From: Patellaria atrata CBS 101060
Taxonomy: Eukaryota
Reading direction: 5' to 3'
Assembly (NCBI GenBank): GCA_010093705.1
Contig: MU006089.1
Location: 2,157,561 to 2,221,560, forward strand
Length of the DNA stretch: 64,000 nt
The translations under genes were made by a program, and so were the position numbers. Below are positions 24,962 through 32,014 of this stretch, piece after piece (the stretch's first letter is position 1; each line of letters starts with the position of its first letter). The notes under the pieces are model-generated. The model searched no databases, had not been told where the DNA came from, and saw only the letters and a list, made by a program, of their open reading frames with translations.

Positions 24962-26082
24962 GGTTGAGATAGATATTCACCCGAACGGAGGTAGATGGAT
25001 GTTCTTATCGATCAAGGTGAGCTTGCTCTACACCTGTCGCGTGCCAATGGTTGCCGCGTGAACAGGTTTGATGCCATGCGCCGAGTCGGAAGGGTAGATA
25101 TGTGTTGGATAAAACCAATAAATTTTGTAGACTAAATATTTGATTCCTAAATGCGACTCCAAAAGCGATCAAAGGAAATGGAAGGTTGCGGTTTGAAGGA
25201 AAGGGTGATCAGGTTAAGGTAAGGTGACGCAAAAGTACAGAGCAAAACTTCGGGAGAACAAATTCGGATAGGAGGAAATGAGCGACGAAAAGTCTTCATG
25301 GTCTGCCGTACTCTAGCCTTGTTTTAGTCCGAAAACTCCCCTGTGCTCCCTGCAAAACAATTTCCGACGTATCCCGAGGCAGAGATTCCCCTACAAAAAC
25401 AAACACCAAAATCGAGCGCTACCCTGCTTATACAGATTATATGATATCAAAACATAAACAGAATAGAGATTTTTAAAGTTTAACGCGTCTGTCTATATAT
25501 CATCATCGATAATGGAAGATTGAAAACCCGATTATTGCGCTTTTGGAGTAATAGCTGTAGATGGTTAACCGTCTAAGAAATAAATGTCACGAACGGTAGA
25601 TTTGACGTTGCATGAATCTGTGATCAAGTTCGAGGAAACACCGACTGTCATTAGCTATAAACCCAGCCATCTTCCGCCAGAGGATCCAAGATACTTTTCA
25701 AACCGACCCAGCCCAACCATCTACCGTATGATGTACAAATAGCAGAAGATATCCACCAAGTGGACAACGCCATGCAGATGGGAGTAAAGACTAAGATGCA
25801 GCAGGATGGACCAGTGGACGGAAGACGCCACACCAAGGAAAAAGGAAATCCAATATTAAATTGACAAAGCCCAGATATCCAAGTCCCCAGTGCCGATATA
25901 GCAAATGGAGGACACCAAAGATGAAAATATTGACACAATTTGGCTTTATGTTGATGAAGAGGTGTATGACTTTCCGATGTTCGTGACGCATTAAGAGCTA
26001 TGGACAGCTATTTATCCATTAGCTACTGGTTCAGACGGACAATTAAAGGTATGGCAAGGTATATACTTACAATTGTAAACAT

Positions 26083-26808
26083 CTACAGTCTAGAACCGTG
26101 GACGACCTTATAGTCGACAGCGAGTTCCTGGCCGTCATCATTGATGACGAGGACACGCACGCTGCCACGGCCATTGTCGAATGCCTCTGTGAGGCGAGAA
26201 AGGAGACCGCTCTGGTCAATGACGGGCAAGCCCTGCTTGATATCACCGGTCTCGGTCATTGCGACGACACGGCCGTCATCACGGACATCGAGGACACGGT
26301 ATTGCTTGAAGACAGGACCAAGCATGTTCTGGACAACAACGGACGGGGCCGGGGTGGAGATGAAGCTAGACTCTTCATGAAGCTGCTTGGTGAAAAGATC
26401 GACACCGAGATAGCGGTGTTGACCGGTTTGAGAAGAGGTGGTGATGCGGATGACTTGGCAAGGGCGGCCCTGAAGGATCAGGAGGTCGCCAATGCGGATG
26501 TGGTGGCAAGGGATAGTGATAGTGTTAGGGACGGCCATGGTGGGTAATGCGGAGACGGAGCTAGAGGTGTAGCTGGATGAAGAACCGACTTGGGGTGGAA
26601 GAGGACGAGATGAAACTGGGGCAGGACCTTGTGCTTGCGCTGGTGCTGAGATGTTGACTGTTTCCTTGATAACTACGTTCTCACGACCTTCGGGGTGATG
26701 ATGGTGATGATGACGGGGTCCGTGGATGGGATGACGGATACGGTCGGCAGCTCTGTGAAGACCGGCGCGGAAGGAGTGGTAGTTACCGTCGTCGTCGTAA
26801 TATCCCAT
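26083..26808 (-). CDS. hex1: Woronin body major protein HEX-1 (AUG-initiated form)
   Basis: MGYYDDDG start, His-rich segment, eIF5A-like core TIPCHHIRIGDLLILQGRPCQVIRI...GVDLFTKQLHEE, and C-terminal PTS1 SRL. Confidence 0.97.
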   Translation of the reverse strand: MGYYDDDGNYHSFRAGLHRAADRIRHPIHGPRHHHHHHPEGRENVVIKETVNISAPAQAQGPAPVSSRPLPPQVGSSSSYTSSSVSALPTMAVPNTITIPCHHIRIGDLLILQGRPCQVIRITTSSQTGQHRYLGVDLFTKQLHEESSFISTPAPSVVVQNMLGPVFKQYRVLDVRDDGRVVAMTETGDIKQGLPVIDQSGLLSRLTEAFDNGRGSVRVLVINDDGQELAVDYKVVHGSRL

Positions 26809-27777
26809 ATCACGCTTGTGCTTCTTGGGGGCGTCGACTGTTGTTCGAGTAGTTTCTACTCGAACTTCTGCCTGAGGCTGAGAGTAACGCTGAGGATACT
26901 CTTCTGCGCGTTGACCGGAGATCGGTTGATACTCTGCACTAACCTGAGCAGAGTAAAGGTTCTTAGTGGGAAATTCTGGAACGAAACCTGCTTGAGTTCG
27001 TTCACGGTATTGGCTTTCAGTGATGTCTAACTGAGAGCCGGCGTAATGGGTAGCAGGAGTGTGGACGGTATTGAAGTTGCGGTCGTAGACTTTGTCTTGT
27101 ACGCCGTATACCTTGTCCTTGACCTCTAACTGGGCGTCGGTGTAACGTTGATAGGGTTCTTGGTATCTGTAAAAGAAGAAAGTTAGAATGAGATGGAAGG
27201 GAGAAAAAAGTACGACTAGGTTAGGTAAGGATGTTGCTCAGACAACAAAACAATAAGCCACTAATGCCTAATTGGGCGACTAAAACATTAAAAGGGGAAA
27301 TTGTGCAAGTTGTGCACGCTAGAGGGTCACGGTCGTGTTTTGGAAATAGAAATTGCACACCGACTTTACTTACTGCTGACGTGCGGATTGTGGTTGATAC
27401 TGAGCTTGAGTATGAGTTCGAAGTTGAGGCTGGGGCTGATACTGAGGTTGCTGTTCACGTTCACGAGTAATATGGACTTCCTTGCGGAATTCTTTGTGCT
27501 CGCCTTGAACTGGTAGTTGTTGGGCTGCGGCTGGTCGTTGGTAGCGGTCCTGCTCGAAAACGCGTACCTCCTCTTCGAAACGTTGACCTCGTCGAGGATC
27601 GTCGGTTGAGAAGGCAGTGATGTGAGTTTCGTGACCTTCCCGTCCGACGCGCGATTTATCAGGTAGGTTGACTTCACCCTCTACCTTGATGCTAGTTTTC
27701 TCTGCTTTGACAGCGTCGCTCCGATACGAGGACGGGAAGACACTGAAGGGGATCGGGACGCGGGCGTCAAAGTCCAG
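26809..27777 (-). CDS. hex1: In-frame N-terminal extension of HEX-1 (long isoform; putative CUG start)
   Basis: Exon 27777-27374 (LDFDARVPIPFSVFPSSYRSDA...ARQ) is followed by intron 27373-27167 (GTAAGT...CTAAC...TACAG) and exon 27166-26809 (...DAPKKHKRD). The 762 nt are stop-free and in frame with MGYYDDD. Confidence 0.75.
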
Positions 27778-30310
27778 GTTGGCTGGAGTCGCGGCGTCCT
27801 TTCTTGAATGCCTCTCGAACCGTTACGGGTAACAATTCGAAAGGAAGACAAGAAAGAACTTCTTGGCTCCTTACGGTGAGAAAGATCTCAAAAGATGGGT
27901 AAAGGAAGAAGCGACGTGGTAGCCAGCTTCGAAGGTATTTAAAGCTCTGAAGAGCAGTGGGGAAACGATTGAAACGTGATGAGGTGCAATTGGCGGAGTT
28001 TGTGATGATGAAGAGTGAGATGTAGCACGAAGAAGGAGAGTGGAGGAGAGGTAAAAGAAATGGGCGCGAGAGGGGAGCAAGAGGTTGACTGGGAGATGGC
28101 TGGGGGGTGGTCGGAGAAAGCTCTCAGCTTAGAGCGGCTTTTTGTTGTGCAGTGATCCGCGACGTTAGCGCGTAAACAACTCAAGCTTGGCCGGCCAAAT
28201 CGAGCTAAATTACTCCTTTTCATTCCCCCTGGCGCCTCATGAATATCAATCACATGCATTTGCTTCAAATCTCATCACTCGAAGGCCACCAAAATCATCA
28301 ATTGTACCTTCTCAAGAATTGTATCTTCAAAATTCAGACTCCAGCATCGAGGTGATATCCTTCGAGAAGATGGTTTCGCAATTATGCCCGATTCCCAAGC
28401 CTTCAATTGCTGATTGCTCAGTTCATTGCGTTACGCAAACCTCACAGGTTTCGAACCCGCCATTTCCTTGTAGAGTATCCACTGCATAACTCGTGGTGCC
28501 TGGCCATTGGATAGTATGGACCTCGGATAGTATATCACCGCGTCTTTGATGCAAACAATCGATAGTGATGCAGAAGAGTGAGATTTCGTTGGAAGCTTTC
28601 AGCTGAGTTTGTCGTGAGACCCGCAGCTTATCCCCAGCCTCCTTTTTATGGTCGCGACGGTCATTGGATACGGTTTAGGCTGGAGTTGCTGCACCGTAAC
28701 GCCTTTCTGCACGTTCTGCATAATTGGCCGTCCACGGGTAGTATGAATCTGTTAGGCCCGAGCGAACCATATTCGCCAGCTTCACCTCATACGCTACCGT
28801 GGACCGATCGCAATATAATTCTCGGCTCTGCCGAATTACCGTCGAGGATACTATCGAATTATTTAGCTCCAAATATAGACGTAAGAGATCTCGAACAGCG
28901 AAAGGACGTTCAGACTTCAGAGTAACATGATTAGAGAGTTGTCTCACCTGTTCAACTACGCGTTCTCTTTTACTTCCAGTAATCAGTCTATTTTGGAGTA
29001 CATATCTTACTGGATATTCCAATGGCACTCTCTTCTCATATACTTCACGTATACCTCCTTAGGAGGACGACGTGACGTTGATTTAAAGTATCCTTCTCAC
29101 GTCTTAGGAGGCACGCAAGGCTCCTTCCCGTACGGAAGAATTTCTCTACTCATGGAATGCACTGTCTAGATTCGGTCAGCTCCTACCCAAGGTACATACT
29201 GCTATCGAATTCTCTTTAGTCTTTCGGGTACCAGTCATGGCTTCATTAATTTATCAACCCATCTTCCATTATTCAAATCTATAGGAAACCTCTGTTTGCT
29301 TAGCAACCATACACGAAGAAACCACATACGGACATAAGGTAGTACTTCTTTTAAATACATGCATCTTGGGAGCTGTATTCTTTAACCTAAAGTGTTCTAT
29401 TCCTCTTACCACTGATTCCAGCGCATAGCTCGAGTAACGTAATACTTCTCGGTCTCTTTCTAGTGTGTTTCTTTTCTTGTCGGACGTTGACAAGATTCAT
29501 GTCCCAAGCACATATTGACCTTGAGATGCTCATTTACCTCTTACTGGGGATCGGTGTCATGAAGAACGTTAGAAACATCAGTCATTTTTAGGTTGCCAGA
29601 TCTAATTCTATGTAGATATTGGATAAAACGGTTACAATGATCCATCTCACTAACACCTGTGTTTCAAAGCATCCATTGCATACGCAAAATCAATAGTATA
29701 CCTATGTTATAGGGGCAGCCTATGAGTCCGCAACAATAAGAGATGCATATCACTGAGCATTCTAGGATACCTTGGGTTATGGTATCTTTAGAATTGGTCT
29801 AACTGATCAATTCCTATTTTACGGTAGTTTTGTTTGGTACTCTCTTCCAGGTTGTACTACGGTCTGAATACCCTATCACATATGTACTGGTCTCTTCCAG
29901 GTTAGAAACGGGTACTTTCCTCTATGTTAGCAGGTAATGTCAGCCAGTTGTATAGTGCCGTACAATTGGAGAAAGTCACGAGTGATATGCAGCAAGACAA
30001 GGATAGCCTGCATGCATTAGGATGTTATGCTTTGTTACGTGGCGATCCCGTCTACTATGTCACGTCGTTGTAAAGCGCTAGGAGAATTATTTTTTTTTTA
30101 ATTCATGACTCTTAGGTTCGCCGCATCGTGCGGACTTTCCCAAAGCGTTTGTCCGTTTATCTTATTTACAGTACCTGCGGCTCCCCATGACATAAAGCTA
30201 CAGTAGTCATCACTTCAAACCAAATCACAATAGCACACACAGTCTTTTCCTCTCCGACAATTCTTTTCCACACAGGAATCCTTTGAAGTTCTACAGTCAA
30301 TTCATCCGCC

Positions 30311-32014
30311 ATGACGTCCTCAGCTCAAGAAAACTACCCCGCAGCGGGGCTCTCCCCAACCCACACCTACATCCCCAATTGCGGCTACGAACGCAAACCA
30401 GAAGAGGAATACACCCTCTCCAGCACCCAGAATAAGCCAGCAAGCAACTCCGAAGCCCAGGATGTCACGCTCGACGACACCGAAGACTCCGACGCCTACT
30501 ACACCTCCGAAGACGACGTGTCCGAAAACGAGCTTTCGACCGCAAACCCCAACGACTACACCAAATCCTACAACCGGCAACGACGCCTCAATGACGCCTC
30601 AGCCCCCGACTCGGAGCGTCCGAAAACGAACCCGCAGAAGCCGACTGCGAACACGAGAGCGAGCGTGGACGACCAGATCAAGTCGCTGTCCCGGCATGCG
30701 GCGAAGCTCAAGCTGGACGACGCACAAGCGGGCCTCAGCGGCGGCGGGGAAAACACAAAAGACAAGAGCGACCGGGCGACGTCCGAGAGAGTCCTCGACC
30801 CACGGACGCGGATGATACTGCTTAAGATGATAAACAAGGGTGTCGTGAGCGAGATCAACGGCTGCATTTCCACCGGCAAGGAGGCGAATGTGTATCACGC
30901 GCTTCTGATACCGGAGGCGGAGGAGGGAGGCGAAATGGGACCGAGGCATATGGCGATCAAGGTGTACAAGACGGCGGCGCTGAGTTTCAAAGATCGCGAA
31001 CGGTACGTGACGGGCGAGTTTCGGTTCAAGAAGGGCTACAAGAAGGATAGTAGGAGTATGGTGAGGGTGTGGGCGGAGAAGGAGATGAGAAATCTGAATA
31101 GGCTTTTCGCGGCGGGGATACCATGTCCGGAACCTGTTTACCTGAGGGTAAATGTTCTTGCTATGGGGTTCCTAGGCGATAAACGCGGTTGGCCTGCACC
31201 ACGGCTCAGAGACGTATCGTTCGAGAGTGAAGATGCAGATGTAAAGTGGAAGAAACTGTACATACAGTTACTGAGCTACATGCGGGTCCTCTATCAAACA
31301 TGCAAACTCGTACACGGAGACTTGAGCGAGTACAATGTCCTATACCATGAAGAAAAACTCTGGATTATCGACGTCAGTCAGAGCGTCGAACACGAGCATC
31401 CGCGCTCCCTAGAGTTTCTACGAACAGATATCAAGAATGTGAGCGACTTCTTCCGCAACCAAGGCGTCGATACACTGGCCGAGCGCACCGTCTTTGGGTT
31501 CATCACCGAGTCGGAGGGAAGCGTTGAAGAAGAGGGCATGAGAGCTTCCGTTGAAACTCTATACGCGAAGAGAGCGGAAACCGGGAACTATGAACAGGCC
31601 ATCGCGGACGAGCTCGTCGATAACGAGGTCTGGCGTCAGCAATTTATCCCGCAGACTCTGAATCAGGTGTACGATATGGAGCGCGACGGTGACAAGCTCC
31701 AAGAAGAGGCTGGAGGTGTGGATCTAGTTTACAAGGACCTCTTAGCCAATAACGGTAAACCGGCTGCCGCGGACAGCAGTGCCGCTGGTGCCACGGCCAG
31801 CGAGGAAGGAAGCGATGAGGACGAAGATAGTGAGGAGCGGGAATGGAGCGACCGCGACAATAAAAAGCCTAGAGGTAAGAAACATCAGGAGCATGATGAG
31901 AAGAAGGCACATAAGGAGAAAGTCAAGGAAGAGAAGAGGGAAAAGAGGAAGACGAAGATGCCGAAACATGAGAAGAAGCGGTTGATCAAGACGTCTGGAA
32001 ACAAGAAGAAGTGA
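30311..32014 (+). CDS. RIO1: RIO1 atypical Ser/Thr kinase (40S biogenesis)
   Basis: DKSDRATSERVLDPRTR, STGKEANVY, AIKVYKT, VHGDLSEYN, IIDVSQSVEHEHP, and a K/E-rich C-terminus. Confidence 0.95.
   Translation: MTSSAQENYPAAGLSPTHTYIPNCGYERKPEEEYTLSSTQNKPASNSEAQDVTLDDTEDSDAYYTSEDDVSENELSTANPNDYTKSYNRQRRLNDASAPDSERPKTNPQKPTANTRASVDDQIKSLSRHAAKLKLDDAQAGLSGGGENTKDKSDRATSERVLDPRTRMILLKMINKGVVSEINGCISTGKEANVYHALLIPEAEEGGEMGPRHMAIKVYKTAALSFKDRERYVTGEFRFKKGYKKDSRSMVRVWAEKEMRNLNRLFAAGIPCPEPVYLRVNVLAMGFLGDKRGWPAPRLRDVSFESEDADVKWKKLYIQLLSYMRVLYQTCKLVHGDLSEYNVLYHEEKLWIIDVSQSVEHEHPRSLEFLRTDIKNVSDFFRNQGVDTLAERTVFGFITESEGSVEEEGMRASVETLYAKRAETGNYEQAIADELVDNEVWRQQFIPQTLNQVYDMERDGDKLQEEAGGVDLVYKDLLANNGKPAAADSSAAGATASEEGSDEDEDSEEREWSDRDNKKPRGKKHQEHDEKKAHKEKVKEEKREKRKTKMPKHEKKRLIKTSGNKKK

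Follow-up and report, generated by a model that had tools for sequence, protein, structure and literature searches.

A conserved CUG codon as the likely start of a long HEX-1 isoform in Patellaria atrata and related fungi

The stretch of DNA analysed here, which we call the window, comprises 64,000 nucleotides (nt) of Patellaria atrata CBS 101060 (GenBank assembly GCA_010093705.1, contig MU006089.1, positions 2,157,561 to 2,221,560 of the forward strand), and all positions are counted from its first letter. Its minus strand carries hex-1, the gene of this Dothideomycete that encodes the major Woronin-body protein, and our subject is the region upstream of the AUG from which the classical protein is read, where a CUG codon probably starts a longer isoform. 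The core open reading frame (ORF) is identified as hex-1 by two eIF5A-like Pfam domains, by matches to solved HEX-1 chains and by its SRL end. The Pfam matches on 26086-26808(-) are PF21485 (IF5A-like_N; 31.7 bits, cut-off 27.1) and PF01287 (eIF-5a; 28.3 bits, cut-off 24.2); the solved “Woronin body major protein” chain 8qlw_A matches residues 1-241 of the window protein (E = 1.4e-88), and the solved HEX-1 chain 1khi_A matches the core protein as well (E = 1.8e-76). The translation begins with MGYYDDD at the first AUG and ends in ...VVHGSRL, a peroxisomal targeting signal type 1 (PTS1), and its closest database proteins are from Dothideomycetes, at about 62% identity. Self-assembly into the crystalline core of the Woronin body would be expected of a HEX-1 protein.

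Upstream of MGYYDDD the frame remains open. When 27777-27374 is joined to 27166-26809 across a canonical intron, the result is 762 nt without a single ATG, or 254 open codons in frame with MGYYDDD, and the predicted sizes of the long and short isoforms are 495 and 241 amino acids (aa), respectively. Between the ATGs at 28223 and 26808 the minus strand has only one other, at 27288, and it lies within the intron. The exonic sequence (28222-27374 plus 27166-26809) amounts to 1207 nt with no ATG, where base composition would predict 13.9 and a first-order Markov model 4.5. Of all ATG-free gaps on the minus strand of the window, the two found here rank first (935 nt) and fourth (480 nt) in length, and the longest such gap on the plus strand is at most 372 nt. 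ATGs are dense on both flanks, with 11 in the 285 nt above 28222 and 10 within the 726-nt core ORF. The extension opens at a CTG in the surrounding sequence GCC AAC CTG GAC, and the in-frame TAA upstream of it shuts the frame to any start further 5’. The coordinates of all features are compiled in Table 1.

A preliminary description of this locus, made from the letters of the window, had reported the spliced, stop-free extension of 254 codons, the lack of exonic ATGs over the leader with a single one in the intron, and the opening GCC AAC CTG GAC with A at -3 and G at +4; recounting confirmed all three. It had also placed the in-frame TAA about 14 codons before the extension with no AUG in between, of which the lack of an AUG stands and the distance is corrected to 16 codons. 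The leader that it drew up to 28220 is indeed free of ATG, and that position is to be taken as an upper bound and not as the 5’ end.

Table 1. Features of the hex-1 locus in the window, listed from the 5’ side of the gene.
Feature	Position	Strand	Remarks
ATG-free zone 5’ of the CUG, upper bound of the 5’ leader	27778..28222	-	no ATG; expected to contain the TSS (transcription start site)
Conserved bipartite RNA hairpin	27796..27859	-	11-bp outer stem, 4x4 internal loop, 15-bp inner stem, 4-nt loop
In-frame TAA, 16 codons 5’ of the CUG	27823..27825	-	seen in the sequence
CUG, proposed start of the long isoform	27775..27777	-	G(-6) C(-4) A(-3) A(-2) C(-1) CUG G(+4)
Extension exon 1, 404 nt, opening with LDFDARVPIPFSVFPSSYRSDA	27374..27777	-	no Pfam domain
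Intron, 207 nt (donor GTAAGT, branch CTAAC, acceptor ACAG)	27167..27373	-	contains the ATG at 27288; homologous intron spliced out in mRNA contigs of relatives
Extension part of exon 2, 358 nt, ATG-free in every frame	26809..27166	-	seen in the sequence
AUG of the short (classical) HEX-1 isoform, MGYYDDD	26806..26808	-	first AUG of the predicted mature mRNA; context GAU AUG G
HEX-1 core ORF, 241 aa, SRL (PTS1) then stop	26083..26808	-	ATG density normal; Pfam and structure matches

The preliminary description had further proposed to test whether, among relatives, the CTG itself and not merely a leucine codon is invariant together with its context, whether protein conservation begins there, and whether orthologous leaders are depleted of AUG. 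The comparison that follows answers each of these questions in favour of its reading. A metagenome scan with alignment of N-terminal segments, in which loci were searched by the N-terminal motif only, returned 80 loci; clustering at 95% identity reduced them to 41 lineages (a few of which are possibly split through incomplete contigs), and with the window there are 42 representatives. By best match, the lineages are affiliated with Cenococcum (97%), Pleosporales, Aureobasidium-like fungi, Acarosporales lichens (about 80%), Hyaloscypha (100%) and Cadophora (92%), and more distantly with Eurotiales (about 60% to Rasamsonia), so that Dothideomycete-, Lecanoromycete-, Leotiomycete- and Eurotiomycete-like sequences are all included.

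The leucine codon at the head of the extension is CTG in all 80 metagenome loci (75 found by the first pattern and five D-A-K variants) and in 42 of the 42 representatives, window included, and CTG accounts for only 45 of the 422 other leucine codons in the same frames (10.7%). Its context is equally constant over the representatives, with G(-6) in 42, C(-4) in 41, A(-3) in 42, A(-2) in 41, G(+4) in 42 and a pyrimidine at -1 in 37, and it agrees with the fungal consensus around start codons. In 14 of the 42 lineages the nearest in-frame stop 5’ of the CTG is four, five or seven codons away, and in 11 the distance is 16 codons; in seven lineages the CTG is the sole near-cognate codon after that stop, and no in-frame ATG lies between stop and CTG in the 80 loci or the window. 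The neighbouring codons vary synonymously: Ala is written with four codons, Arg with five (CGC, CGA, AGA, CGT, AGG) and Val with three. Mean column entropies by codon position are 0.17, 0.06 and 0.75 downstream of the CTG and 0.76, 0.71 and 0.74 upstream of it, where no periodicity is visible. Residues D2, F3, A5, R6, V7 and P8 are invariant as amino acids, mostly with synonymous change, which indicates that they are translated, and the CTG is the only conserved codon able to start them.

Among the sequencing runs, the two that contain the window sequence in full (X1 and X2) are DNA and probably underlie the source assembly, and a third (X3) contributes three small contigs only. As a separate observation, run X2 also holds low-depth contigs (depth 5-7, the main genome being at 450) that derive from another organism with a hex-1 gene and match window positions 27709-27781 and 26443-26514; in one of them, the similarity to the window stops 4 nt 5’ of the CTG.

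Contigs from transcripts of relatives show how the region is spliced. A 256-nt soil metatranscriptome contig from a relative of about 99% identity covers 27880-27624 unbroken and unspliced, and differs from the window by two substitutions and one 1-nt deletion, all 5’ of the CTG. Seven Cenococcum-like contigs, compared with the genomic locus L005, lack a 178-nt intron and are collinear with the genome 5’ of the CTG; those that reach far enough also lack a second, downstream intron, and four of them have 5’ ends 245-256 nt before the CTG. The same relation, spliced within the extension and collinear upstream, holds for L074 against genomic L069, with the 5’ end of L074 at 225 nt before the CTG. 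These two lineages are the ones in which introns are confirmed by mRNA, and many of the 1.1-2.5-kb contigs are spliced transcripts. In 25 mRNA-like contigs the frame is open from the CTG to MGYY, over a distance of 648-1089 nt that is divisible by three throughout, and the same 25 contigs have a leader of 57-426 nt without ATG. Fifteen lineages are complete to SRL or SRM and give long forms of 423-581 aa. With leaders of up to 426 nt, those mRNAs have no AUG-bearing exon joined to them; an upstream exon with an in-frame AUG, which the preliminary description had named as a possible refutation, was found in none of the mRNA contigs that can be compared with genomic DNA. For the window, these lengths point to about 250-430 nt of leader ahead of the CUG and not to one that extends all the way to 28220. 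A side observation concerns one 95% cluster of Cenococcum-like contigs (L002, L004, L007, L008 and L011), in which the extension measures 882-1077 nt in multiples of three; BLAST finds internal repeats there, and the length follows the variation in repeat number within the disordered arm.

The lack of AUG observed in the window recurs in its relatives. We counted one contig for each of 17 mRNA lineages, subtracting the row of the genomic locus L029, and found no ATG in the 17,510 nt that lie between the 5’ ends of the contigs and the ATG of MGYY, where 186 would be expected from composition and 63 from a first-order Markov model; the remaining ORF of the same lineages has 144 in 10,428 nt, against 112 and 138 expected, respectively. 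Among all mRNA-like leaders, 25 of 27 are without ATG. In the loci the nearest ATG 5’ of the CTG is 135-586 nt away, and ATGs are dense further out. The proteins in databases agree: in the 118 (of 208) that contain both motifs, the extension has three Met in 26,291 residues, all in two odd-looking models, and the part downstream of it has 366 in 25,577. All 36 aligned long forms have the Met of MGYYD, and its ATG is preceded by a purine at -3 in nearly every lineage and followed by G(+4) in each of them. The removal of AUG from three frames of a coding sequence whose introns retain theirs is what leaky scanning to the next AUG would require.

The extension is also present in hundreds of database proteins. 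Searches with exon 2 and exon 1 returned HEX-1 proteins of about 400-600 aa with a near-invariant LDFDARVPIPFSVFPSSYRSDA, from named sources in the Dothideomycetes, Lecanoromycetes, Eurotiomycetes (Aspergillus, Penicillium, Exophiala), Leotiomycetes, Geoglossomycetes and Xylonomycetes, the class assignment having been checked for six lineages. To our knowledge, no Sordariomycete is among the 120 matches listed of 251, judged by genus names. The resemblance to long Aspergillus HexA models that the preliminary description pointed out is borne out: LDFDARVPIPFSVFPSSYRSDA occurs in models of A. fumigatus, A. ibericus (“partial”), A. tanneri and A. terreus and in many from Penicillium. Directly before the L of LDFDARVP the database models share nothing, every N-terminus there being invented and unlike the others; 18 named entries carry the flag “partial” and begin just a few residues ahead of LDFDARVP. 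Where residues before the L look similar (FERHSRKDA, REAFKKG, KGIRE), a single nucleotide sequence has been read in three frames. Among the 60 profile-search matches in which a motif pattern located the CUG position, four start exactly at that position with M-D-F/Y-D, and one more begins with M-Q-D-F-D (the proteins are P0211, P0293, P0303, P0310 and P0260); either some of these lineages would have exchanged the CUG for another start codon, or a gene caller may have written M.

As to the nature of the extension, a Pfam search of two pieces of it found no family. An AlphaFold2 model of the full long form of a relative (the ORF of L021, 36-row alignment) has a mean predicted local distance difference test score of 51, with values below 50 almost throughout the extension, and the N-terminal motif is not docked on the core in that model, which thus offers no clue to mechanism. 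The extension is accordingly predicted to be disordered save for one short helix.

On this evidence, we consider it likely that the CUG is the start of the long isoform and that the AUG-free stretch is kept for leaky scanning, one message giving both the long and the short protein. The process would run as follows. The 5’ leader of the hex-1 mRNA would carry no AUG, and a fraction of scanning 43S complexes would start at the CUG (27777), which has a near-optimal fungal Kozak context, producing the isoform of about 495 aa, whose first residues would be (M/L)DFDARVPIPFSVFPSSYRSDA followed by a mostly disordered region of about 250 aa. The other complexes would traverse the AUG-free 762 nt of coding sequence and reach the first AUG (26808), also in a strong context, and make the 241-aa MGYYDDD protein, and selection would keep the stretch free of AUG so that nothing intercepts scanning ribosomes. 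The arrangement of CUG and AUG-free stretch may set the ratio of the isoforms.

Several points weigh against this reading, or limit how far it can be carried. We infer both CUG initiation in vivo and production of the short form by leaky scanning on the same mRNA from sequence comparison; the transcription start site (TSS) and the splicing of the window gene are carried over from relatives, and the 5’ ends reported above are ends of assembled contigs rather than mapped TSSs. The invariant block runs past the CTG: codon 3 (Phe, window 27769-27771) is TTT in 42 of 42 representatives, where two further conserved Phe codons close by are written TTC in 41 of 42, and codon 2 is GAC in 37 of the 42 lineages. 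The pattern points to a constraint on the nucleotides from +4 to +11 that goes beyond the protein sequence, and part of the invariance of the CTG could therefore be a constraint at the RNA level. Nor is the leader absolutely AUG-free everywhere, since L065 (27-38) and L071 (36-67), which belong to one lineage, have one or two leader ATGs, with upstream ORFs (uORFs) of three and seven codons, 211-221 nt before the CTG. In three lineages represented by genomic loci, an ATG comes as close as 135-191 nt to the CTG on its 5’ side. Genomic loci of several lineages also have ATGs between the CTG and MGYY; wherever a frame-preserving single-intron model exists, every one of these can be placed in that intron, a count that is biased because the models were picked to minimise exonic ATGs, and for L039, L040 and L076, which have such ATGs, no single-intron model was found.

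The alternative that survives best accepts the CUG as the start of the long form and has the short form made mainly from an internal TSS in or after the intron, in place of leaky scanning. Alternative TSSs and splice variants of hex-1 are reported for other fungi in PMC7762394, and our loci, having been searched by the N-terminal motif, could not have included short transcripts. However, an internal promoter gives no reason to purge ATG in three frames from 650-1090 nt while introns keep theirs, and none for the absence of Met from the extension of 118 proteins, and we regard this explanation as unlikely.

A second alternative takes the whole upstream region as an untranslated leader with a function at the RNA level, so that only the 241-aa protein is made. 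The functional studies consulted used or described forms starting with MGYYD, which is also where the solved HEX-1 structures matched here begin; long N-terminal extensions are regarded as probable annotation errors in PMC7762394, the extension is predicted to be disordered, and some nucleotide-level constraint does exist near the CTG. An untranslated leader would nevertheless have to account for a frame that is open over 648-1089 nt in 25 mRNA-like contigs, always in multiples of three, for variation that falls on third codon positions after the CTG with no such periodicity before it, and for amino-acid blocks that are conserved, with synonymous change, in at least six classes. We hold it to be very improbable.

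Finally, that the long isoform starts at an ordinary AUG in an upstream exon spliced just before LDFDARVP, the CUG being an internal Leu, is a layout used by many database models and one for which AG dinucleotides shortly 5’ of the window CTG (GACTCCAG, followed by CCAAC) and dense ATGs beyond 28223 could be cited, but it is scarcely credible when the mRNA contigs of two lineages are collinear with DNA and unspliced for 225-256 nt 5’ of the CTG, when 25 mRNA-like contigs have 57-426 nt of ATG-free leader in place of an upstream AUG exon, when the AG is not conserved and the database N-termini are all mutually different, and when an internal Leu is not expected to be fixed as CTG in 42 of 42 representatives at a usage of 10.7%.

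In addition to the start codon, the leader contains a conserved and stable RNA hairpin, which is a new finding of this analysis. The stretch of about 96 nt before the CTG is conserved at the nucleotide level; in the window, nucleotide conservation with relatives upstream of the CTG is confined to 27873-27778 and ends near 27873-27930. The block occurs in all three phases relative to the CTG (in 23, 11 and 7 lineages), which shows that it is non-coding. RNAalifold folds it into two stacked stems of the CUUCUUG/CRAGAAG and CCUUUCG/CGARAGG type. In the window, the 3’ base of the hairpin is 18 nt before the CUG, and the inner stem includes the in-frame TAA in its 3’ arm, adjoining the apical loop; the 121-nt fold has an energy of -42.5 kcal/mol (z = -3.87), and none of 200 shuffles is equally stable. 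Over the alignment, 97.0% of cells are paired, compared with 39.5-67.1% when the partners are slid, and 19 cells are changed on both sides versus 4.7 +/- 2.9 in shuffles (0 of 500 reach 19), with double changes in two pairs; these counts rest largely on conserved sequence, and relatedness inflates such figures. Folding of single sequences gives the same two-stem hairpin in 39 lineages, with a median of -33.7 kcal/mol for 93 nt and z below -2 in 37 of the 39. In these folds the apical loop has about 4-6 nt, longer inserts between the core arms mostly pair and lengthen the inner stem, and the stem extensions differ among lineages yet remain complementary. In the various lineages, 30-40 nt separate the end of the inner stem’s 3’ arm from the CUG, and 10-25 nt separate the end of the hairpin from it. 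A search of 26700-28400 against Rfam found no matching family; two sub-threshold matches to archaeal snoRNAs, on the other strand, are taken as chance.

The two-stem hairpin would belong to the same leader module as the CUG, and it probably modulates how many ribosomes reach the CUG or stop at it. It could gate scanning in a helicase-dependent way, refold behind the initiation complex once this reaches the CUG, or serve as a protein-binding or localisation element. More speculatively, and as a possibility rather than an expectation, the CUG, the hairpin and the AUG-free stretch of about 1 kb may form one ancient translational control module in at least the Dothideomycetes, Lecanoromycetes, Leotiomycetes and Eurotiomycetes, in which refolding of the hairpin behind a scanning complex with its P site at the CUG, as a backstop or as a helicase-dependent gate, would tune the ratio of long to short protein. 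A role of its own in Woronin-body assembly, tethering or septal-pore association would then fall to the long isoform, whose conserved (M/L)DFDARVPIPFSVFPSSY tip sits on a disordered arm, and this function would have been missed because all work used the short form.

Other interpretations of the leader and its surroundings were considered and set aside. GAAnnTTC-like repeats in the leader recall a heat-shock element, which was rejected on three counts: the repeats are wrongly spaced for one, the loop changes in length whereas the stems covary, and mRNA contigs include the element. RNAalifold also draws two small hairpins 3’ of the CUG, GGAC/GUCC and another at +40 to +59, for which codon constraints provide the explanation; its output has no convincing structure at about +14 that could cause pausing at the start codon. 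A ribosome shunt of the caulimovirus type is unlikely because the leaders have no AUG-started short ORF: 25 of the 27 mRNA-like leaders are without ATG, and the tiny uORFs of the other two end more than 100 nt before the hairpin. Besides the main hairpin, a second small conserved inverted repeat, AAGAAGCG...CGCUCUCUU, occurs about 95-130 nt before the CUG, 5’ of the main hairpin, in Leotiomycete-like loci only (among them L039, L043, L048, L049 and L051).

With respect to the rest of the locus, the core protein has a run of six His (PRHHHHHHPEG, window 26698-26715(-)) after MGYYDDD, and a polyhistidine motif in this region is required for septal targeting of A. fumigatus HexA, as described in PMC7762394. 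About 2 kb without a recognisable gene (28223-30287) separate hex-1 from an open frame of 575 codons on the plus strand (30287-32014), which looks like a divergently transcribed neighbour. A Pfam search of the small ORFs around hex-1, at 28678-29058(-), 28569-28925(+) and 25651-26007(-), found no family.

HEX-1 is the defining protein of the Woronin body and a standard subject of fungal cell biology and pathogenicity work. If it is true that about half of the hex-1 genes of Pezizomycotina encode a CUG-started isoform of 420-580 aa, then the gene models of hundreds of genomes would be systematically wrong, deletion and tagging studies in Aspergillus, Zymoseptoria-like and other fungi would have affected two proteins and not one, and the length classes described for Hex1 would gain a concrete explanation. 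The combination of a natural CUG start, about 0.7-1.1 kb of AUG-free coding sequence and a leader hairpin would be unusually clean, and useful for work on start-codon stringency in filamentous fungi.

Rice tungro bacilliform virus has a stable leader hairpin, a non-AUG start soon after it, and then hundreds of nt that are nearly free of AUG. The hex-1 leader resembles this system in its hairpin, in the non-AUG start nearby and in the long AUG-poor stretch before the next start. However, the viral shunt needs a short AUG-started ORF before the hairpin and serves separate ORFs, whereas hex-1 is a cellular gene with AUG-free leaders and two isoforms in one frame. Yeast offers another likeness: near-cognate codons start N-terminal extensions on proteins that are also made from AUG (Monteuuis et al. 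2019, PMC6582344), so that here too an upstream near-cognate start adds an extension to an AUG-started protein. The yeast extensions described there are short mitochondrial targeting signals, whereas that of hex-1 would add about 250 residues to a protein with the same PTS1 end.

Within the HEX-1 family itself, isoforms of hex-1/hexA made by alternative splicing of an intron after MGYYDD are described in PMC7762394, a paper on V. dahliae, and in papers that it cites. They share with our case the family and the two isoforms per gene, but, as described in that text, the spliced forms differ by about 20 residues 3’ of MGYYDD and both start at AUG, whereas here 254 residues would be added upstream from a non-AUG start. 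The study of MrHex1 (PMC7559983) distinguishes Hex1 length classes of 470-534, 405-469 and 145-209 aa, leaving their cause open and allowing for misannotation, and about half of the 460 Hex1 proteins that it catalogues have 405-534 aa. These long models have the same extension as the one analysed here, and their start codon, an analysis of the leader and an explanation are not given in that text. A full-text literature search, whose scope did not extend to subscription papers on Aspergillus HexA, did not link hex-1/HexA to a non-AUG start or to leaky scanning.

The proposed mechanism is of a known kind, in which a near-cognate start produces an N-terminal extension and leaky scanning leads to the AUG, and its closest fungal precedent is cpc-1 of N. 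crassa, for which N-terminally extended CPC1 isoforms from conserved near-cognate codons have been described (Ivanov et al. 2017, PMC5487733). The main text of that paper does not contain hex-1, Hex1, Woronin or NCU08332. The two genes are alike in belonging to Pezizomycotina, in having a widely conserved in-frame extension with no AUG to start it, and in the conserved non-AUG start proposed for each. As cpc-1 is presented there, it has AUG uORFs and several candidate near-cognate codons, whereas in hex-1 there is just one candidate, an invariant CUG, the main AUG is preceded by no other, and a conserved hairpin lies just 5’ of the proposed start.

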